Of a stretch of DNA of 40,933 bases, positions 1 through 8,870 are shown one piece after another; within the stretch, counting starts at the first letter, position 1, and each line of letters opens with the position of its first letter. The notes under the pieces were generated by a model that saw nothing but the letters and a program-made list of their open reading frames with translations, had not been told where the DNA came from and searched no databases. A program made the translations under genes and the position numbers. Origin of the DNA: a virus (taxonomy: Duplodnaviria > Heunggongvirae > Uroviricota > Caudoviricetes); IMG/VR virus record IMGVR_UViG_2563366852_000006, positions 1 through 40,933 of that record; one strand, 5' to 3'.

Positions 1-330
1 TTGCCTCCCCCCCGTTGATGGGTAAAATAGCCGCAATTTTTCGTTTTCAACAAGCGCGGCGCGATGCCGCTTACTCAAGAAGAAAGAATTATGACGTTGT
101 CTCCTTATTTGCAAGAGGTGGCGAAGCGCCGCACTTTTGCCATTATTTCTCACCCCAATAATTAAGCCCAAATTAAAGCTCTTTCACTCTTTCAAAATCC
201 TTTCAGTTAATTGAGATTGAGCTATATAACTCATTTAAATACATTTAGTTATGTGGCTTCTTTAATTGAAAATTCTTTCATGTAACTTTAAATCGATCTG
301 CTTGCTTTCATCAAAAATCTGTACATATGC

Positions 331-347
331 TTGTACATAATGTACAA
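331..347. promoter_or_regulatory. Perfect inverted repeat TTGTACA-TAA-TGTACAA upstream of the integrase; further TGTACA copies at 320-325 and 371-376
   Basis: Read directly from the sequence. The TGTAC half-site recurs in the cI-cro intergenic palindrome at 8002-8019. Confidence 0.35.
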
Positions 348-385
348 AGCAGCAGAGGTGTTTTGCGATTTGTACAAGGTGAGTA

Positions 386-1609
386 ATGGCGCTGTCTGAT
401 GCGTGGTTGCGTTCAGTCGTTGGAAAGGAACGTGATAAGGTTTTGGTTAAATCCGATCGTGATGGTCTGTCTGTCAGAGTATCACCGAAAGGTCGCGTAG
501 TGTTCCAATATCGTTATCAATGGGCAGGGAAAGGTGAGCGTCTTGATATCGGAACTTACCCAGCAACTGGATTAAAAGAGGCCAGAGAAGAAGTTATCCG
601 TCTCCGTGGTGAACTCGAGTCAAACCGTAATCCACGATTGGTCAAGCAGGCTGAAAAACGAAAAGCTACTGAAGCCATGACGGTAGAGTCTGTGATCCGT
701 GCCTGGTATGAAGCATATTGTGTAAAAAATAAAAAAGGCTCTGAACAGATACTCCGCTCGTTTGAGCTGCACCTGTTCTCTAAAATCGGGAATATCCCTC
801 ACGATGCAGCTACATTGCATGATTGGTTAGAAGTCCTGGAGCCTCTTAGCACTAAGACTCCAGCAATAGCAGACCGATTGCTAATTAACGCAAAGCAGGC
901 CCATGTCTGGGCGTATAAGAGAAAGCTCATTGAAACTCGCCCGCTGTCGGATATCACGGGTAAAGATATGGATATCCGTAAAGGTCAGAAGAAACGGTTT
1001 CTGACACATGATGAAATTAAAATCCTTTATGCTGCGATCGATGGTTCTCGAATGGTTCCTAAATACCGGGCCTTCATTAAACTATTGCTGCATTTTGGCT
1101 GCCGTAGTTCAGAGCTAATTACCGCCAGGGTGGACGATTTTGATTTCATTAATAAAGTATGGACTGTACCACCAGAACGACATAAGACTGGGGAGATAAC
1201 GGGCGAACCGCTAAAGCGGCCCATTATTGAACCGGTTGAAGAGCTTATAAAGTACGCTATTTCTATGAACAATGGTTCCGATATGCTTTTTACTAAGGAA
1301 GGAAGCAGGGAACCCGTTGGTCGGACATCATTGCAGTCGCTGCCTTACAATTTAATGCAGTATGCATGGCGGCGTTTGGGGTATCAATTCCCTCATTGGT
1401 CTCTGCATGATTTGAGGCGAACAGCACGAACAAACTTTTCTGATCTTACTGCGCCTCATATCGCAGAAATAATGCTCGGTCATAAACTGCCGGGGGTATG
1501 GCAAGTTTATGACAAGAGTGATTATTTAGAAGAACAGCGTAAAGCCTACCAGGCATGGTGGGAGAGAGTTGAATCGATTGTTACTTGTTCTGGTTCAGAC
1601 ACCAACTGA
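386..1609 (+). CDS. int: Tyrosine recombinase (phage integrase)
   Basis: 407 aa ORF with an N-terminal arm-binding-type region and a C-terminal catalytic region containing HDLRRTARTN and a downstream Tyr (VYDKSDYL); sits at the prophage edge next to an AT-rich putative att region. Confidence 0.85.
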   Translation: MALSDAWLRSVVGKERDKVLVKSDRDGLSVRVSPKGRVVFQYRYQWAGKGERLDIGTYPATGLKEAREEVIRLRGELESNRNPRLVKQAEKRKATEAMTVESVIRAWYEAYCVKNKKGSEQILRSFELHLFSKIGNIPHDAATLHDWLEVLEPLSTKTPAIADRLLINAKQAHVWAYKRKLIETRPLSDITGKDMDIRKGQKKRFLTHDEIKILYAAIDGSRMVPKYRAFIKLLLHFGCRSSELITARVDDFDFINKVWTVPPERHKTGEITGEPLKRPIIEPVEELIKYAISMNNGSDMLFTKEGSREPVGRTSLQSLPYNLMQYAWRRLGYQFPHWSLHDLRRTARTNFSDLTAPHIAEIMLGHKLPGVWQVYDKSDYLEEQRKAYQAWWERVESIVTCSGSDTN

Positions 1610-1781
1610 CAGTTTGCATATTTTGAACGCAATAAAATATGACAGTCCGCTTTGAGCGAGGAGCGGATATATGATGTTTAGAAAACGCGCGATTTGCAGT
1701 TAAGCAATCTAAGTTACTGATGTACTATACTGGAACTGCTGGCCAGTTTGTGTTGAACACCATCATTATCACAATAAGGAA

Positions 1782-3035
1782 ATGAAAGTTGAAATGAATA
1801 CTAAACTTTTGGCCTATTTAAACAATGAGTTACATGGAGTGTGGGTAGATAGTGAAAATCGTAATATCCACATAATACTTAAATCAAGCCTTCCTATAAT
1901 TAAATCCGTCTGGTCAGGAGCACCTATCCACTTTTTGGTAGGTTTATCTACTAAAAATATACTAGTGATTGGGATGTTGATTGAAGATAATGTCGATAAT
2001 CCATTTTTACTAGCCTATCCACCAAGAGAGGCAGATGAAATTAAAGGGCTGGATTTGTTATTGTCAGGCGCTTATGATGGTATTCTATTATCATTTTTTG
2101 ACTCGCATACAATGCGTGTTATGGACCTGAAAATAAAAGTTTCGGAAAATTTACCGTGTGAATGTTTAAAAAAATTTTGTGCTAATTCATATTCTCTCAA
2201 TTCAGGATTTAGGGAAGGTAATGAAGCAATGGATGAATTCTGCAACAATGCTTTGACTGGTAACGAGAAAATAATTAGTCTGCCACTAAGTGTAATCGAT
2301 AAAAAATCTTACCTAGCAAGTGTTCATGAACCAAACGATACCGTATTAACATATGAATTTAGCGTCAGTGAAAACGGCTCTGAGGGATATGAGCAGGAAG
2401 CTCTTATATACCATGCTTTGCGGCAGGTCTTTTCAACGGAGGAAGTGTTTTTTTCTCCAGATATTATTGAGGGTAATAAAAAAAGAGAACTAGTTGATAT
2501 TCTTATTGTAGAAAATGACTATGTATTATCTATACAGTCTAAAGCATCATCTTTGATTGAAATGGGTTTGAAATCTCATGAAAAGCTTTGTAGCATGTAT
2601 AAGAAAAAAGCATTGCAAGGGATCGATCAGGTTAAAGGCGTTATCCCAATTCTAAATAATGATGTGGTTATTAATTATGACGGGAGGGAATGCTTAATAA
2701 AGCGCAGAAAGGGTATTTATCATTTAGTGATAATCTCAGATCTTGTTTTAGAGAAAGAAGGTGCTGAAAAGATTTATAACGAAATTAGCAACCTTAAAGA
2801 GTCAAAAGGGGCGAAAGTTTTAGTTATGAGCCTTGAAGGTCTTGTAAATTTTATAAGACTATCAAGATTAAATAAAAGAATGTTTTGGGCAATGCTGGAG
2901 GCTAAATACAAGTTCAGCATAAAAAACCGTACAATTTTAATTAGAGATATCGACTCTAGCCAAGAGAATAATCTACCATTACTTGCCACTGATCAATACC
3001 TATCACTTCTTCGAGGTACGGGAAAATTAAAATAA
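1782..3035 (+). CDS. Hypothetical protein, AT-rich cargo gene between integrase and the early operon terminator
   Basis: 417 aa uninterrupted ORF, visibly AT-rich compared with flanking phage genes. RBS AAGGA lies just before the 1782 ATG; an alternative ATG is at 1794. No family recognised by eye; a possible E...PD...QxK-like stretch (EQEAL...SPDIIEG...VLSIQSK) is unverified. Confidence 0.6.
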   Translation: MKVEMNTKLLAYLNNELHGVWVDSENRNIHIILKSSLPIIKSVWSGAPIHFLVGLSTKNILVIGMLIEDNVDNPFLLAYPPREADEIKGLDLLLSGAYDGILLSFFDSHTMRVMDLKIKVSENLPCECLKKFCANSYSLNSGFREGNEAMDEFCNNALTGNEKIISLPLSVIDKKSYLASVHEPNDTVLTYEFSVSENGSEGYEQEALIYHALRQVFSTEEVFFSPDIIEGNKKRELVDILIVENDYVLSIQSKASSLIEMGLKSHEKLCSMYKKKALQGIDQVKGVIPILNNDVVINYDGRECLIKRRKGIYHLVIISDLVLEKEGAEKIYNEISNLKESKGAKVLVMSLEGLVNFIRLSRLNKRMFWAMLEAKYKFSIKNRTILIRDIDSSQENNLPLLATDQYLSLLRGTGKLK

Positions 3036-3220
3036 ATTGTATCAATGATACTGTTGCCACGTATCGAGACTGGCTTATGAACGGAAGGGTTTTCCAGCAG
3101 TTCAGCGACCGGAGCTGCACATCGATGCCGGATTGTGCCTGCAATTATGTACTTGGCTAAGAGGTGCTGCTGGCTCTGGATAGAATAACCCTAACGTCCA
3201 AAGAGCGCGCATTTTCATGT

Positions 3221-3263
3221 AAAAAAATAAATAGCTTGTCTGCTCTTGATACAGAGCAGACAG
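3221..3263 (-). terminator. Rho-independent terminator at the end of the leftward early operon
   Basis: Hairpin TTGTCTGCTC-TTGATACA-GAGCAGACA (3236-3263) followed on the minus strand by a T-run (plus-strand A-run 3221-3229), just downstream of the xis-like gene. Confidence 0.55.
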
Positions 3264-3320
3264 TCAGATCTGTTTGGCTTGTGCCATAGATGTGCCAGCT
3301 CACATTTGAGCTAATGTTTG

Positions 3321-3518
3321 TTACTCAATTACTCCTGCAAACCTGTATATCTTACGTGATGCCCATTTATTTGGGCAGGATTTAATATCAGGATCTGGAA
3401 AATCAGGCCGATATTTCTGACCAGTCCTCCGGTTTACACTGTTCCAGCGAAGCACCGTCGATATTGAAACGCCACAGAATTCGGCGACTTGTTTTGTTGT
3501 CATTAAGTTGTTCATTGT
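3321..3518 (-). CDS. xis: Excisionase / AlpA-family HTH protein
   Basis: Internal start MNNLMTTKQVAEFCGVSISTVLRW is a typical AlpA/Xis HTH. Start re-chosen at 3518 because the track's longer N-terminus overlaps the upstream gene and looks non-coding. Confidence 0.6.
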   Translation of the reverse strand, partial: TMNNLMTTKQVAEFCGVSISTVLRWNSVNRRTGQKYRPDFPDPDIKSCPNKWASRKIYRFAGVIE

Positions 3519-3859
3519 TGACCCTCCTGTGGTTGTGCAGTTGAAAGACTCATGCCAGCGCGTTGTTTCCAGACGACCCAGCCGAGAGCCATATCCCACG
3601 CCATGTACTCGTTATCACCGTTTTTTGCTCTCCGACGATCGACTGTTTTACCGAAACGCTTTTCCATAAATAATTCATAGGCTGCGCGTTCATCTGGCTC
3701 AACTTCCAGAGATGCCAGTGCAATCCGTGCCAGTTCTAAATCATCTTCAAGCTCAGCGCGAATCTCAGCGAATGCACTCTGTGTTAAGGCGAACTCAATG
3801 CTCTGCACTTTATTCCGTGCGCGCTCAAGCAGTGCATGGTAGTTAATTTCGGTTGTCAT
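3512..3859 (-). CDS. Hypothetical phage early protein
   Basis: 115 aa ORF tightly packed in the leftward operon (stop/start overlaps with its neighbours); acidic and helical-looking; no motif recognised. Confidence 0.5.
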   Translation of the reverse strand: MTTEINYHALLERARNKVQSIEFALTQSAFAEIRAELEDDLELARIALASLEVEPDERAAYELFMEKRFGKTVDRRRAKNGDNEYMAWDMALGWVVWKQRAGMSLSTAQPQEGQQ

Positions 3860-4734
3860 ACCCCTACCTCTTCGAATTTTAATTCCAATTGATCACCCCA
3901 GATTTCACATGACTCTGAACACGAGCCGGTATCGAATCGCCTGGCCTGTACCATCGCCTGATACAAATTTCTGTAGTCGCTGTTGGCAGACATTCTGGCA
4001 ATTCCGTCAAGCGTCAGGTGACCACGGTACATAACGTCTTTACCTGTTCTGCGATGACCATCCCTGACGTGTTTGCCTGTAACCAGCTCATTAAAAACTC
4101 GCATCAGACCAGGTTCGTCTTTACATGCAAGCCCCAGCTTTTGCGTTGACTTTTTGATGCAGAAAACACAGTTCCCGAGATGCTCCGGGATTTGCAAATC
4201 AAAAGGTTGTTTTCGCCACCACCGGATAACATCCGACTTATCAAAATCTGACAGTTCGGCAAGATACCGGATGCCCGATTTCGGTTTCAGCCTACGGGGT
4301 TCGTCTGCACGAATACCCAGCCATGTGATGTAATTACCTCGCCCGAAATGGTTATCGCAGTATTTCGTGAAAGGGATGAGTTTTAGCCTGTCAGTACAGA
4401 ACGCGCCACCGATGTATGGCGTGCCGTACTTTTTAACCATGTCCATAAACGGTTTAAGTACCGGCATTCGCGTCTGAATATCCTTTGGCTCCCATTCTGT
4501 ATAACCATTTGGCTGCCCAAGCTCAGGATTGATATCGACCTGCAACACAGTTAGTGGTATGCCCCAGAACTTCACAACCTCCCGAATAAAGCGGTATGTC
4601 AGCGGATGTTCGCAACCGGTATCCATAAAGATGTAGCAGACGTTATTGCCAGCCTTTCTTTGTTCTTCCATCAGGTGAACAAGATATGCGGATGTTCTCC
4701 CGCCAGAAAAACTAACTACATGAGTTATGCACAT
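3856..4734 (-). CDS. PAPS reductase-like PP-loop family protein
   Basis: Contains VSFSGGRTSAYL, an SGGxDS-type PP-loop, near the N-terminus. Start chosen at MCITHVV (4734), which overlaps the upstream HD gene stop by 10 nt; the track's longer start at 4851 is the alternative. Confidence 0.7.
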   Translation of the reverse strand: MCITHVVSFSGGRTSAYLVHLMEEQRKAGNNVCYIFMDTGCEHPLTYRFIREVVKFWGIPLTVLQVDINPELGQPNGYTEWEPKDIQTRMPVLKPFMDMVKKYGTPYIGGAFCTDRLKLIPFTKYCDNHFGRGNYITWLGIRADEPRRLKPKSGIRYLAELSDFDKSDVIRWWRKQPFDLQIPEHLGNCVFCIKKSTQKLGLACKDEPGLMRVFNELVTGKHVRDGHRRTGKDVMYRGHLTLDGIARMSANSDYRNLYQAMVQARRFDTGSCSESCEIWGDQLELKFEEVGV

Positions 4735-5261
4735 TTGCGTAATTCCGATAACTCGTTGAAGCGTTCCATAAACATCCCGTAGGCATGGCCCGGTGCCAGT
4801 GGAATAACTTTGAACATCTCTGTTGCCGGGATACCTTCCAGTACAGGCCATAAAGAGCCATCATCAAGCCCGAGATCACGGCGTTCGGTTGCCAGCATGA
4901 TTAGATCGGCATATTTCACAGGCGTGCTCATAACCGGGGGCAACTCGTATTTCTCACGGATTACTGCATCTATTTTTTCTTCCATCCGTTTATAGTCAGG
5001 AAGAAGGCGTTTCAGTGGTGCGGGGATGTCCTGGCAATACGCTTCTGTTGCATCATGCATTAACGCTTCAAAAGCAAATTCCTGCGGCACCAGCTGGCTG
5101 CAAAGCACCGCATGTTGGGCGACGCTGTAGAAGTGAGAAAGATGACCGGCAAAGCGGCAGATATTTGAAAGGGAAACCGCGATATCGTTAATCACGATGT
5201 CGTCTTTATTTATCCTGTCATAATAAAAATGCTTCCCGGAAAAAGTTTTAATAAATGACAT
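4725..5261 (-). CDS. HD-domain phosphohydrolase (YfdR-like 5'-deoxynucleotidase family)
   Basis: His...HD...D pattern (FAGHLSHF...EALMHDATEAY). Start at MSFIKTF (5261) is preceded by GGAGAACAAA RBS; the upstream ATG at 5288 has no RBS. Confidence 0.65.
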   Translation of the reverse strand: MSFIKTFSGKHFYYDRINKDDIVINDIAVSLSNICRFAGHLSHFYSVAQHAVLCSQLVPQEFAFEALMHDATEAYCQDIPAPLKRLLPDYKRMEEKIDAVIREKYELPPVMSTPVKYADLIMLATERRDLGLDDGSLWPVLEGIPATEMFKVIPLAPGHAYGMFMERFNELSELRKCA

Positions 5262-5388
5262 TTTGTTCTCCACGTATATGCGCTGCACCGCGCTGAATTT
5301 GGGTAAAAGGAAGCCCTCACCATCCGGTGATTATTGAGTTAATTACGTTTCCATAAATGCCCCTGCAGGGGCATTTGCAGTAATGAAA

Positions 5389-6213
5389 TCAGGCGGTGAA
5401 AGTACCAATAAAGGTTTCTACTTTGCTGTCTTTGAATTTCTCAACAAGCAGATCACGAAATTCGTTAGCCATATCTTCCTGCACCGCTTCCAGCTGAATA
5501 ATGCGCAGAACCAGTACAGGACGATCGCCAGTGATAATGCTGAGGCGTAATTTAAACGGACGTTCTTTCAGACCTTCAAACGGAACGCATTTAAATTCAA
5601 ATGCCACTGGCATAATGTCTTTGGTCTTCGCTTCGACAGATTCCATCAGGGAGCGTTTGCCGCTGAAGTCATTATCTTCAAAATCAGCGGTCTGGTTTGC
5701 TTCAATCGTGATTTTACGGATTGCCGCAGCCGCTTTTGTTGCCTGAATGGCGTCACCATTAGCATCAAAGCCCACAAGGTAGTCGGCCCAGTCTTCAATC
5801 CATTCTGCCAGTGATTTCTGGGAGTTACGCTCGCCGTTAACAGACAACAGGGCAGAGAACGGTGCTGTCTTTTTCAGTTTGAGAGTGGCGGTGTTATCTG
5901 CGTGACCTGGTTCATCAATAGTACCCAGGTTAAGCACACTGACGGCACGCATATTATCAGCATCGATAAAGCAGCGGGTGCCTTCATCTGCAAGATCTTT
6001 AGAATAACGGGTAAAGTCATCGATGCTGGCAGTGGAAAGCGCACCACGGAAACGGAAGCGATTTAAATTAAATTTTTCCAGATCATGAATGCGGAAATTC
6101 TCAGGCAATGCCACAGCATCGGCACCAATCTTACTGATAATTTCATTAACACCCTGAGCAGAAATAAGGGCATGGATTTGATTAATTGCGGTTGCGTCTA
6201 AGTTCTGAGACAT
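5389..6213 (-). CDS. DUF2303 / YfdQ-like phage protein
   Basis: 274 aa ORF; size and gene order (120 aa, 274 aa, 178 aa HD) recall the yfdP-yfdQ-yfdR arrangement of E. coli CPS-53. This is from memory, not a search. Confidence 0.5.
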
Positions 6214-6278
6214 AATAAGTCCTCACTATATTAAGATATTCAGTGATGAGATAAATAATCAGTTAATTAAGAACGATA

Positions 6279-6641
6279 TTAATGACCTGCTGCGCGGAGT
6301 TTTCCGTCAGGCTCACCGGCAAGAGTCAGTAATTGTCCCTGGTCTTCCTGCAGAATAGTCAGGCGACCACCGCGATTGACATACATCGGCGTTTCGGTGG
6401 TGTCTTCTTCGGAAATTTTCCCACGGTTAGTCGGGCGAACATATGAGAGTTTGTGTTTGATTTTCACACGGTTCTCATCAAATGGTTCGATTTCCAGGTT
6501 GAGTGAGACCTTACCTTTGGTTTTCGTGTTCATCACACCGGAAGCGACTTCACTGAGAACTGCGCCGATTTTGGTTTCAAATACGCCGCCGTCCAGCTCC
6601 CCGATAAATGCCTGCACATCAGTACTGCGTTCACTAGCCAT
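6279..6641 (-). CDS. Hypothetical early protein (120 aa), first gene of the leftward operon
   Basis: Start re-chosen at MASERST (6641) with GAGGAG RBS upstream; the track's N-terminal extension to 6872 is Cys/Arg-rich and looks non-coding. Confidence 0.55.
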   Translation of the reverse strand: MASERSTDVQAFIGELDGGVFETKIGAVLSEVASGVMNTKTKGKVSLNLEIEPFDENRVKIKHKLSYVRPTNRGKISEEDTTETPMYVNRGGRLTILQEDQGQLLTLAGEPDGKLRAAGH

Positions 6642-6689
6642 TTTGCTGCTCCTCATCATATCGACCCTGCAAGGTCGGTTAGTTTCTCC

Positions 6690-6778
6690 ACAAAACAGAG
6701 AAGAACACCTGCGGTGGCAGCCGCCCGGATGGATTGGGTTATGAGCCCGTCGTCCGATGATGTTCTTCTCTGTTTTGT
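6690..6778. repeat. 18-bp perfect inverted repeat (ACAAAACAGAGAAGAACA / TGTTCTTCTCTGTTTTGT) with a 53-nt GC-rich spacer, in the leader of the leftward operon
   Basis: Arms at 6690-6707 and 6761-6778 are exact reverse complements. The spacer contains a nested GCGG-TGGCAG-CCGC hairpin. No credible ORF covers it. Confidence 0.6.
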
Positions 6779-7236
6779 AAAAAGAGCGGTACCAGCCGGA
6801 AGCAAGTGTACAAACTGGTACCGCCAAAGCAGTGGCTGTTGTGGTGGGGTTGTCACTCAGGCGTATGGTCAACCTGACAATCCGGTGTCCTCAACGGGGA
6901 AAGAGTAACCCCGCCATACTTACCGCCGCGCCATTTCGCGGATTACCACAACGCTGAGAGCACTTAGCCAGTTACGGCACCACACTTTGTCGCGGTTCCA
7001 TAAATGCCCTCATCGTTGCACCCTGGTCTCTTCCCAGGCGTCAAACCGAATCGCCACGCTGGTTAGGCGTCTTATCAGCATCATCATTGACTTGCACATT
7101 CCGGCTACCTGGTTTGTTTGCCCGAGCAAGGAGTGGATTATCCCCTTTAACGTCACCAGACCGCTAACGACGCATGTGCCATACGCCGTGTTACAACCAA
7201 ATTTTGTTTTAATCTTGCCTGTGTTATGTTTCTTTT

Positions 7237-7253
7237 AGATACATTATGTATCT
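7237..7253. promoter_or_regulatory. Palindrome AGATACA-TTA-TGTATCT, candidate operator or promoter element (oL-like position)
   Basis: Perfect inverted repeat in the 670-bp non-coding region between cI and the leftward operon, followed by GGTACATTGTCAAG. Confidence 0.3.
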
Positions 7254-7273
7254 CATGGGTACATTGTCAAGCA

Positions 7274-7297
7274 TAAAAAAACCTGCCGAAGCAGGTT
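7274..7297 (-). terminator. Rho-independent terminator downstream of cI
   Basis: Hairpin ACCTGC-CGAA-GCAGGT (7281-7296) followed on the minus strand by a T-run (plus-strand AAAAAAA 7274-7280), immediately after the cI stop. Confidence 0.6.
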
Positions 7298-7309
7298 CAT
7301 AAATATTGA

Positions 7310-7984
7310 TTAGGCCTTTATTGTGTATCTTCTTGGTTTTCCCGAGAAAATCACTGTACCAATTATAGAGCAATTACCGTTAATCTTAATGTAAGGCTCA
7401 GGCCAGTTTGGGTTTAATGCTTTGAGATAACGCTGTGTTCCATCTTCTATCAACCGCTTGAAGGTGGTTTCGCCTGAATCGTGCATCAATGCAATAACGT
7501 CGTCACCGTGGCAGGCAGGGACTTCAGGATCTACAAAAATCATGTCTCCCGGGCGGTACTCATCAATCATTGAATCACCAATCACCCGCAAGATATAAGT
7601 CATTTCGCCACAGGGTACAGGGCAGGGATAAGTTTCTGCTGTGCTCAAATCAACCTCAGAATAGCCAACTTCTTTCCATGCTCCGGCCTGTACCCATGAT
7701 ATGACAGGGACTAACGTTATTTGTTTGTTAGTAATTGAAACATCAGGTTTTTTTGTGATGTTTGTTGTCTGGTGTTCTTGATCAAGCCATCCGACAGGCA
7801 GGTCGAAACATTTTTCGATGTGCCGTGCCATGCTGTCACCGATATTTTTAGTAGCACCATCTCCCATAAACCTGCTGGTCTGGGTTGGCTCGCGATCAAT
7901 CATGGTGGCAAAGGAAGAATTCCCGCCAACACCATCTCTCAGTTTTCTGGCGTTAGACCGCCGGATGTCATGGACTGTTTTCAT
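7310..7984 (-). CDS. cI: CI-type prophage repressor (LexA-like S24 peptidase domain)
   Basis: C-terminal S24 autoprotease signature (ILRVIGDSM ... TTFKRL); divergent from a cro-like gene across an operator-bearing intergenic region. Confidence 0.85.
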   Translation of the reverse strand: MKTVHDIRRSNARKLRDGVGGNSSFATMIDREPTQTSRFMGDGATKNIGDSMARHIEKCFDLPVGWLDQEHQTTNITKKPDVSITNKQITLVPVISWVQAGAWKEVGYSEVDLSTAETYPCPVPCGEMTYILRVIGDSMIDEYRPGDMIFVDPEVPACHGDDVIALMHDSGETTFKRLIEDGTQRYLKALNPNWPEPYIKINGNCSIIGTVIFSGKPRRYTIKA

Positions 7985-8001
7985 AACGAAATTAAAACCT
8001 T

Positions 8002-8019
8002 TGTACCGATAGGGTACAA
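8002..8019. promoter_or_regulatory. Operator-like palindrome TTGTACC-N4-GGTACAA in the cI-cro intergenic region
   Basis: Inverted repeat between the divergent cI and cro starts; a second partial palindrome TACA-TAT-TGTA overlaps the cro RBS near 8063-8074. Confidence 0.5.
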
Positions 8020-8074
8020 GTATCTTGAAGGTTCATCTCAATCATGTAATATGTATATTGGAGGTACATATTGT

Positions 8075-8275
8075 ATGAAAGCGTATTGGGACTCTTTAAC
8101 CAAAGAACAGCAGGGCGAGTTGGCCGGAAAAGTTGGCTCAACACCAGGCTACTTACGGCTGGTTTTCAATGGTTATAAAAAAGCCAGTTTTGTGCTGGCT
8201 AAAAAACTTGAGCAATGCACGTCAGGTGCAATTACGAAATCTGACTTAAGACCGGATATCTATCCGAAAGATTAA
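8075..8275 (+). CDS. cro: Cro-like HTH regulator (YdaS-type)
   Basis: 66 aa; GGAGG RBS 7 nt upstream of the ATG at 8075; HTH-like LAGKVGSTPGYLRLV and C-terminal ITKSDLRPD. The track ORF from 7772 is antisense to cI and is rejected as the start. Confidence 0.7.
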   Translation: MKAYWDSLTKEQQGELAGKVGSTPGYLRLVFNGYKKASFVLAKKLEQCTSGAITKSDLRPDIYPKD

Positions 8276-8306
8276 CAGAACACCTTCAATTTTTAACCAC
8301 AGAACG

Positions 8307-8870
8307 ATGAGGCTAACCGTGGGTAAGCATCACTGGAAAGTAGAAAAACAGCCTGAGTGGTACGTGAAAGCTGTCAGAAAAACTATCGCGGCGTTGCCGG
8401 GGGGGTACGCTGAAGCTGCTGAGTGGCTGGATGTAACAGAGAACGCTTTATTCAACCGCCTTCGTGCAGATGGCGATCAGATTTTCCCGCTGGGATGGGC
8501 AATGATTTTACAGCGCGCGGCTGGCACTCACTACATTGCGGATGCTGTCGCACAGTCTGCTGGTGGGGTGTTTGTATCGCTTCCTGAAATTGAGGAAGTA
8601 GAGAACGCCGATATAAACCAGCGCCTGCTGGAAGTCATCGAACAGATCGGGAGTTACTCAAAGCAGATTCGTTCGGCAATCGAAGACGGGGTAGTGGAGC
8701 CACACGAGCAGACAGCAATTAATGATGAGTTGTATCTGTCAATTTCGAAGCTCCAGGAGCATGCAGCACTGGTCTACAAAATCTTTTGCGCTCCAGAAAA
8801 GAGTGACGCCCGCGAGTGTGCAGCTCCGGGCGTCGTGGCGTTTTGTGTCTGTGGAGAAACTAACGCATGA
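8307..8870 (+). CDS. CII-like phage regulatory protein (CP76-type), tentative
   Basis: 187 aa directly downstream of cro; HTH-like LDVTENALFNRLR then an acidic helical region. Family call is from memory. Confidence 0.4.
   Translation: MRLTVGKHHWKVEKQPEWYVKAVRKTIAALPGGYAEAAEWLDVTENALFNRLRADGDQIFPLGWAMILQRAAGTHYIADAVAQSAGGVFVSLPEIEEVENADINQRLLEVIEQIGSYSKQIRSAIEDGVVEPHEQTAINDELYLSISKLQEHAALVYKIFCAPEKSDARECAAPGVVAFCVCGETNA

Follow-up and report, generated by a model that had tools for sequence, protein, structure and literature searches.

The DNA analysed here is a stretch of 40,933 nucleotides (nt), hereafter the window (positions 1 to 40,933 of the IMG/VR virus record IMGVR_UViG_2563366852_000006), which is a lambdoid Escherichia coli prophage integrated beside yjjG and is apparently complete rather than a cryptic remnant. 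On its minus strand, positions 3321-6641 form a single leftward gene string comprising yfdP, yfdQ, yfdR, a ninC-like gene, a yfdT-like gene and xis. A preliminary description of the interval 3512-6213 had proposed an early leftward operon encoding a 3'-phosphoadenosine-5'-phosphosulfate (PAPS)-reductase-like PP-loop protein, an HD phosphohydrolase and a DUF2303-like protein, linked to nucleotide or DNA modification that could counter host defences; the same interval also contains an untitled open reading frame (ORF) for a homolog of YfdT of 115 amino acids (aa), at 3512-3859. Comparative analyses revealed that the ninC-like gene occupies, as a cassette, a variable slot within a conserved yfdPQR(S)T module. 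The genes of the string are as follows.

6279-6641, minus strand: yfdP, 120 aa, named 'protein YfdP' in RefSeq, phrog_204
5389-6213, minus strand: yfdQ (DUF2303), 274 aa, PF10065
4725-5261, minus strand: yfdR (HD domain; 5'-deoxynucleotidase and DnaA-binding by orthology), 178 aa, phrog_318 (E 2.4e-108)
5052-5057, minus strand: HD dyad of YfdR (residues 69-70), the HD metal motif
3856-4734, minus strand: ninC-like gene (PP-loop, 'PAPS reductase-like'), 292 aa, PHROG 424
3512-3859, minus strand: yfdT-like ORF, 115 aa, phrog_660
3321-3515, minus strand: xis (excisionase), the final gene of the string, 64 aa, phrog_1553 (E 6.8e-35)

The yfd module and its variable slot

The last four genes (yfdR, ninC-like, yfdT-like and xis) are translationally coupled. 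The yfdR stop and the ninC-like start overlap by 10 nt (4725-4734), in agreement with the adjacent overlapping genes described earlier, and ATGA overlaps join the ninC-like stop to the yfdT-like start (3856-3859) and the yfdT-like stop to the xis start (3512-3515). The ATG start of the ninC-like gene is the one used in RefSeq (292 aa), a program-listed ORF of 331 aa being an upstream extension, and the xis match to phrog_1553 spans residues 29-92 of a longer ORF. The RefSeq locus of E. coli SC516, with 99.9% identity over window positions 1-6846, is annotated alike, and the locus is already known in its genes and arrangement, with named K-12 or lambda orthologs throughout. A chance origin of the gene set is ruled out, because each protein has full-length, high-identity homologs.

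The slot between yfdR and the yfdT-like gene is where genomes differ. Among 5426 complete E. coli genomes, yfdR was found in 2948 and the ninC-yfdR arrangement in 163, although many E. coli genomes share that arrangement with 100% identity; in phage 2H10, yfdR is followed in the slot by Eae and a second ORF. Gene context was also compared at 80 IMG/VR loci with NinC homologs, where yfdR adjoins NinC only in a clade of 94-98% identity (10 of the 80 loci); a group of 79-81% identity (about 20 loci) includes 12 loci with the lambda-type NinB-NinC-NinE-NinF order, and the other homologs have differing contexts. In O157 prophages, a 90% ninC allele follows gam-recT-exo and a YfdQ homolog in an early-left operon, beside a different 147-aa gene. 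In addition, 74 of 629 E. coli matches to the ninC-like gene are on plasmids, and three listed plasmids (about 96-110 kb) carry ninC alleles that are about 91% identical; the ninC-bearing E. coli plasmids are presumably phage-plasmids. On plasmids of about 97-110 kb, ninC comes after a gene for an ASCH-domain protein; on one plasmid (NZ_AP042698.1, 68640-79507; L090), it was observed among Ea22-like genes, downstream of genes for an ASCH-domain and a phosphatase-domain protein. This distribution of the ninC-yfdR adjacency indicates that the PP-loop, HD and DUF2303 proteins are not the single nucleotide- or DNA-modification unit that had been suggested, the ninC gene being mostly in the nin region elsewhere.

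A chimeric protein (P0021) was observed on 20 contigs, which is NinC-like to about residue 230 and then continues with a DUF551 (YfdS-type) C-terminus, with the GSCSESCE motif lost. The chimera probably arose by a deletion that joined neighbouring ninC and DUF551 genes, which implies that the two cassettes can coexist in the slot.

The flanking yfd proteins are close to those of E. coli K-12. YfdP is 99% identical to YfdP of the K-12 element CPS-53, YfdQ is 100% identical to its K-12 counterpart, YfdR is 97.2% identical over all 178 residues, and the 115-aa YfdT-like protein shares 72% identity with K-12 YfdT over 79 aa in its C-terminal part. The DUF2303 assignment proved sound, YfdQ matching Pfam PF10065 over its full length (E 4.3e-93, 266 of 269 model positions), and the structure comparison gave no informative fold match for this protein. 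A PDB entry titled 'YfdQ Protein' (9o7m, 36 chains) matches window YfdQ at E 2e-44 and about 40% identity by eye; its 36 chains suggest a large assembly of this YfdQ homolog. The HD motif was likewise found where it had been reported, as H69-D70 of YfdR, and H50, H69-D70, E73 and D119 align with the HD-domain structure 2gz4 (E 8.7e-12), so that the predicted metal-binding ligands are intact. RefSeq names this gene yfdR, 5'-deoxynucleotidase, and its score against the Pfam YfbR-like family (24.6) is just under the cutoff of 25.9.

In K-12, multicopy yfdQ and yfdR together with yfdS or yfdT suppressed over-initiation mutants and inhibited initiation at oriC, and YfdR binds domain I of DnaA as a competitor of DiaA and DnaB (PMC4776307). 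YfdR and the 5'-deoxynucleotidase YfbR are structural homologs, the affinity of YfdR for nucleotides being much lower (PMC4776307), and YfdR has weak 5'-nucleotidase activity on deoxynucleoside monophosphates (PMC4776307, citing Zimmerman et al. 2008). With YfdQ at 100% and YfdR at 97% identity and a YfdT-like protein, the window encodes a set sufficient for the K-12 effect. DnaA binding and weak nucleotidase activity are thus what has been published for the ortholog of the HD protein, and we found no evidence for the part in defence evasion with which it had been credited. The yfdR/Q/P cluster has been described as common in lambdoid early-left operons, with or without recombination modules, and as being of unknown function (PMC12315714). 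On that account a recombination role for yfdPQR was considered and rejected.

The NinC-like protein

The PP-loop protein is 79% identical to NinC of phage lambda (tblastn; residues 2-287 against lambda 41078-41935, 98% of its length) and matches phrog_424 at E 7.9e-92. It shows 93% identity to a Stx2-phage gene and 54-55% identity to the P22-like prophage gene that is flanked by ninB and ninE, and a search of the window for a second ninC copy found none. Its motifs, among them the PP-loop that had been noticed before, are located as follows.

4684-4713, minus strand: PP-loop SFSGGRTSAY, residues 8-17
4603-4623, minus strand: DTGCEHP
within 4381-4401, minus strand: conserved Cys113
4291-4323, minus strand: WLGIRADEPRR
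4150-4176, minus strand: GNCVFCIKK (CxxC)
3904-3927, minus strand: GSCSESCE, the C-terminal motif (CxxxC)

Conservation was assessed on 41 homologs and then on 71 distinct homologs at 36-98% identity. Degeneracy of the catalytic motifs, which would have spoken for an inactive enzyme, was not what this alignment revealed: the PP-loop, DTGxEH, K118, WxGxRxDE, R148, C113, C189 and C192 are invariant in all 71, and C272, C276 and E277 are present in 69-70 of them, while C126 is replaceable. The family motifs SxSGGRxS, DTGxEH, C113, WxGxRxDE, GNCxFCxKK and CSESCE all occur in the window protein, and its AF2 model is confident except for the C-terminal tail (pLDDT 87, pTM 0.85). As the motifs and cysteines are kept across 36-98% identity, the protein looks like an active enzyme. 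Three invariant cysteines together with a PP-loop form what we take to be the layout of [4Fe-4S] sulfur-inserting enzymes (TtuA, NcsA, LarE), and by this analogy Cys113, Cys189 and Cys192 probably hold an Fe-S cluster. For many family members of 330-350 aa (e.g., P0244, P0249 and P0251), the profile match was observed to break into two parts near position 150, which implies that about 50-60 inserted residues separate the PP-loop core from the CxxC half.

The protein matches Pfam PF01507 and is annotated 'PAPS reductase', and the likeness to PAPS reductase in the preliminary description stands as N-terminal and structural similarity, with CysH and APS reductase ranking among the top structural matches. 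It does not extend to CysH itself. The NCBIfam CysH equivalog NF002537 scored 20.2 bits against a cutoff of 154, only 59-63 N-terminal residues align with K-12 CysH (BLASTP, hhalign), and PDB searches with the single sequence and with a profile gave only N-terminal similarity, to CysH and APS reductase. CysH has a degenerate, non-ATP P-loop (SSSFGIQ), in contrast to the canonical ATP-pyrophosphatase loop SGGRTS of the NinC-like protein, and the latter carries extra CxxC and CxxxC motifs. The catalytic C-terminal motif of CysH is ECGLH; the GSCSESCE tail has no counterpart of this motif. The host genome, moreover, already has cysH-cysIJ. On these sequence features the NinC-like protein is not an assimilatory PAPS reductase. 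A faint PDB match to 'PptA' (21fy, E 0.65) was followed into the literature, where a search found nothing.

A PP-loop PAPS-reductase-type domain with an ATP pyrophosphatase motif is also found in DndC, SspD and BrxP. In a PADLOC scan, the best match in the defence library was SspD (E 3.7e-15), covering only positions 2-123 of 277 in the model, followed by BrxP (E 3e-4) and DndC models (E 6.5e-3 to 7.6e-3); in the NCBIfam scan, no DndC or SspD model matched at E <= 0.01. The NinC family is large, with 370 clusters (50% identity) at E <= 1e-30 and 1356 at E <= 1e-10. Homologs were found in 588 of 50,697 phage records, and 341 of the 588 are Vibrio phages. The large share of Vibrio phages fits a link with hosts rich in phosphorothioation (PT) systems only if Vibrio is itself such a host, and the count is also confounded by database sampling.

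Further indications came from the company that NinC keeps. Six of the seven longest (>430 aa) among the top 150 NinC representatives are fusions with N6-adenine DNA methyltransferases, in the order Dam-NinC (P0242, P0243) or NinC-Dam (P0241, P0248, P0272), and two methylase families are involved, PF05869 and, in P0250, PF02086. Two proteins from the first homolog search (P0081 and P0082) are further NinC-methylase fusions. With both domain orders and two methylase families represented, fusion must have occurred more than once. Similarly, a Dam gene directly neighbours NinC, upstream or downstream, in 12 of the 80 IMG/VR loci, at NinC identities of 48-79%. The window has a methylase of the same type as in these fusions and adjacencies, encoded separately, about 7 kb away from the ninC-like gene:

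11199-11885, plus strand: phage Dam-type N6-adenine methyltransferase (PF05869, E 1.2e-45), in the nin-like region

One of the fusions, P0082, is p0018 of Vibrio phage 44E38.1 (PAPS-Dam), whose N-terminal half is 55% identical over 96% of the window protein. When p0018 and the adjacent p0019 were moved into a sensitive phage, it grew on a host with dndFGH-dependent resistance (Piel et al. 2022; preprint 10.1101/2021.05.05.442762), and later work refers to this as a phage PAPS reductase promoting Dnd evasion (PMC13551039). The repeated fusions with DNA adenine methyltransferases are good evidence for a function that NinC shares with phage DNA methylation, one directed at DNA and serving counter-restriction. 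The suggestion of DNA modification or counter-defence is therefore reasonable, and the one with most support, for the PP-loop protein, through its methylase fusions, Dam adjacency and anti-Dnd homolog; it is not supported for the HD protein.

Regulatory sequences and other accessory genes

Three features of the minus strand bear on the expression of the gene string.

7243-7270, minus strand: candidate early-left (pL-like) promoter, TTGACA-16-CATAAT, 11 of 12 matches in a promoter scan
6642-7236, minus strand: structured leader (about 595 nt) separating yfdP from the promoter candidate
3237-3262, minus strand: terminator-like hairpin ending the leftward string, a 10-bp stem followed by a T-rich tail

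The promoter candidate sits just past a terminator-like hairpin (7298-7279) of a LexA-family cI-like gene (7310-7984). ATGTA..TACAT operator-like palindromes overlap the pL-like site, and the same palindromes occur in the cI/cro intergenic region (8042-8078). In view of the promoter candidate, the palindromes and the terminator-like hairpins, the label of an early leftward operon is reasonable: the leftward string and its setting were correctly described, and an early leftward promoter at the TTGACA-16-CATAAT site is plausible.

The leader RNA has a fold energy of -225 kcal/mol, compared with -192 +/- 7 for shuffled sequences (z = -4.6). It contains a 25-nt inverted repeat (6690-6714 and 6754-6778; 88% complementary, 39-nt loop) at 50-140 nt upstream of yfdP. 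No convincing ORF was found in the leader, in which RefSeq annotates no gene, and an Rfam scan of window positions 3000-8400 matched no RNA family. Given its strong fold and with no N-like gene evident, the leader could be an RNA-based antitermination or regulatory element.

Two other regions of the prophage were noted. An insert of two low-GC genes (about 32%; 14792-15376 and 15384-16406, both on the minus strand) separates the Q antiterminator gene (14423-14788) from the lysis genes and matches the PADLOC candidate defence system PDC-M53 (subunit B, E 1.8e-54; subunit A, E 2.1e-32); judged by these matches, it is likely a prophage-borne defence moron. Between int and xis, a 417-aa ORF (1782-3035, plus strand, 34% GC) matches phrog_30399, a group of unknown function, at E 3.7e-294, and had no Pfam, NCBIfam or PADLOC match; it occupies the classic moron or defence position at the prophage end.

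Interpretation and comparison with known systems

We consider it rather probable that the early-left accessory operon is a mosaic of independent accessory genes, in which YfdQRT would serve a DnaA-directed takeover and NinC a DNA-modifying counter-restriction. By virtue of the 97-100% identity of YfdQ and YfdR to the K-12 proteins, YfdQ, YfdR and the YfdT-like protein would lower DnaA-dependent initiation at oriC, and their use would be the takeover of host replication early after induction or infection. An ortholog of ninC would have moved from the nin region into the yfdS slot. As an ATP pyrophosphatase, NinC would adenylate a DNA site, and the activated oxygen on DNA would be replaced by sulfur via the Cys113/189/192 cluster and the flexible C-terminal CxxxC tail, in a SspD/DndC-like chemistry that may draw on host IscS and, where the host is Dnd+, on its subunits as well. 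Alongside phage adenine methylation, this activity may protect phage DNA from restriction that senses modification, as Dnd and Ssp do. In this scheme, homology, motif conservation, fold class, gene context and fusions were observed here and the anti-Dnd genetics of a fused homolog come from published work, while we infer DNA as the substrate of NinC, the Fe-S cluster and the insertion of sulfur. For the NinC family as a whole, lambda NinC included, we put forward only tentatively, as a possibility that may well prove wrong, that its members are stand-alone Fe-S PP-loop enzymes which put sulfur (as phosphorothioate or a thio-base) or another ATP-activated modification directly on phage DNA, and which a Dam-type methylase targets or assists.

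Several observations weigh against this interpretation. On the side of the yfd genes, the YfdQRST effect was seen only at multicopy, the K-12 deletion changed neither replication initiation nor hydroxyurea resistance, and purified YfdR by itself was no inhibitor of initiation in vitro (PMC4776307). On the side of NinC, phosphorothioation needs a P-loop NTPase (DndD, SspC or BrxC) and a DNA-recognition subunit, and phosphorothioate was absent from bacteria in which a PAPS-domain gene stands alone (PMC12914056); searches of the operon with Pfam, NCBIfam and PADLOC did not find DndD/SspC/BrxC or DndE/SspB partners. The SspD match covers the N-terminal half only, and the DndC matches are at E of about 7e-3. 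In the Vibrio experiment, two genes were swapped at once and the PAPS domain was Dam-fused, which leaves its own contribution unproven (10.1101/2021.05.05.442762). Furthermore, lambda ninC is nonessential and without phenotype on K-12 according to the literature, which on NinC function offers only 'nonessential' and 'poorly understood', and no NinC-family protein has a known biochemical activity.

Other explanations of the locus were weighed against the same evidence. Cooperation of the PP-loop enzyme, the HD phosphohydrolase and the DUF2303 protein in one nucleotide or DNA modification pathway, with the HD protein for example supplying or clearing nucleotides, would suit their common strand and operon, the 10-nt yfdR/ninC overlap followed by ATGA overlaps, and the arrangement at 100% identity in many E. 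coli genomes. Such cooperation is nevertheless improbable in our view, as the adjacency is confined to a shallow 94-98% clade (10 of 80 loci) and to only 163 of the 2948 yfdR-bearing genomes, K-12 and phage 2H10 have different slot genes, NinC of lambda-type phages belongs to the rightward nin region with YfdR absent, and the NinC of O157 phages adjoins the different 147-aa gene. We see hardly any chance that the PP-loop protein is a true assimilatory PAPS reductase, an auxiliary metabolic gene (AMG) product boosting host sulfate assimilation. The PF01507 match with its 'PAPS reductase' annotation, the top structural matches and the virome literature, which treats phage PAPS reductase as an AMG, would point that way; they are opposed by the score of 20 bits against 154, the likeness to host CysH in only 59-63 N-terminal residues, the canonical SGGRTS in place of SSSFGIQ, the GSCSESCE tail lacking the ECGLH of CysH, the cysH-cysIJ genes that the host already has, and fusion partners that are DNA methyltransferases and not sulfur-metabolism enzymes.

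Two further explanations concern what a catalytic or non-catalytic NinC might act on. Modification of RNA by the NinC family, such as tRNA thiolation in the manner of TtuA, NcsA, TtcA or TilS, for protection from anticodon nucleases or tuning of translation, appears unlikely in the face of the recurrent fusion and adjacency with DNA adenine methyltransferases in both orders and two families, the location of NinC in DNA-metabolism regions and the anti-Dnd genetic link; Pfam and NCBIfam searches, in addition, detected no THUMP, PUA or TilS C-terminal domain. NinC might also counter defences without modifying DNA, as a decoy or competitor for host IscS, DndA or DndDE, or as a consumer of a defence-related nucleotide or adenylated intermediate. 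Its homology to SspD and DndC despite the lack of partners would fit a protein that plugs into or titrates host machinery, and the anti-Dnd activity was observed only in a Dnd+ host. The strict invariance of the PP-loop and of the candidate cluster cysteines argues for catalysis instead, and NinC is common in phages of hosts mostly without Dnd or Ssp (e.g., lambda and K-12), which makes such a role quite unlikely to us.

The preferred interpretation, a mosaic operon with a DNA-modifying NinC, has consequences for annotation. The NinC family is routinely reported as a 'PAPS reductase/cysH' AMG in gut, bee and marine viromes. The failed CysH tests, the canonical PP-loop, the invariant cysteines, the SspD match and the methylase fusions cast doubt on this label, and we argue that a sulfur-metabolism annotation misleads and that DNA modification or counter-defence is where the family belongs. 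If NinC does modify DNA, it would represent a previously unrecognised counter-restriction route of one or two proteins, and the AMG literature would be wrong on this point. The residual interest of the locus is thus the chemistry of the NinC family, which the lambda ortholog makes directly testable in the best-developed phage system.

Compared with known systems, the module is closest in layout to yfdP-yfdQ-yfdR-yfdS-yfdT-torI(xis) of K-12 CPS-53, which has the same order and orientation and also finishes with an excisionase gene. The slot in CPS-53, however, holds yfdS (DUF551), whereas that in the window holds the ninC-like gene; the window Xis is unrelated to TorI of CPS-53 by BLASTP, and CPS-53 is a cryptic remnant, in contrast to the apparently complete prophage considered here. 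Lambda NinC (Orf290, PHROG 424) is of the same length class, and the conserved motifs are common to the family. In lambda- and P22-type phages, ninC is flanked by ninB and ninD/E and is part of the rightward nin region, whereas the window copy is leftward, flanked by yfdR and the yfdT-like gene, and close to xis. The early region of Vibrio phage 44E38.1 also has YfdP and YfdQ homologs; p0018 is fused to Dam and was assayed together with p0019, whereas NinC and Dam are separate in the window. With respect to the phosphorothioation systems, the conserved cysteines of NinC would allow for an Fe-S cluster like that of DndC. Unlike those systems, there is no cysteine desulfurase gene beside the ninC-like gene, and NinC is phage-borne and stand-alone or methylase-fused, unlike SspD, DndC and BrxP. 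NinC is therefore not to be filed as a member of the DndC/SspD family, although by analogy it most likely works like one.

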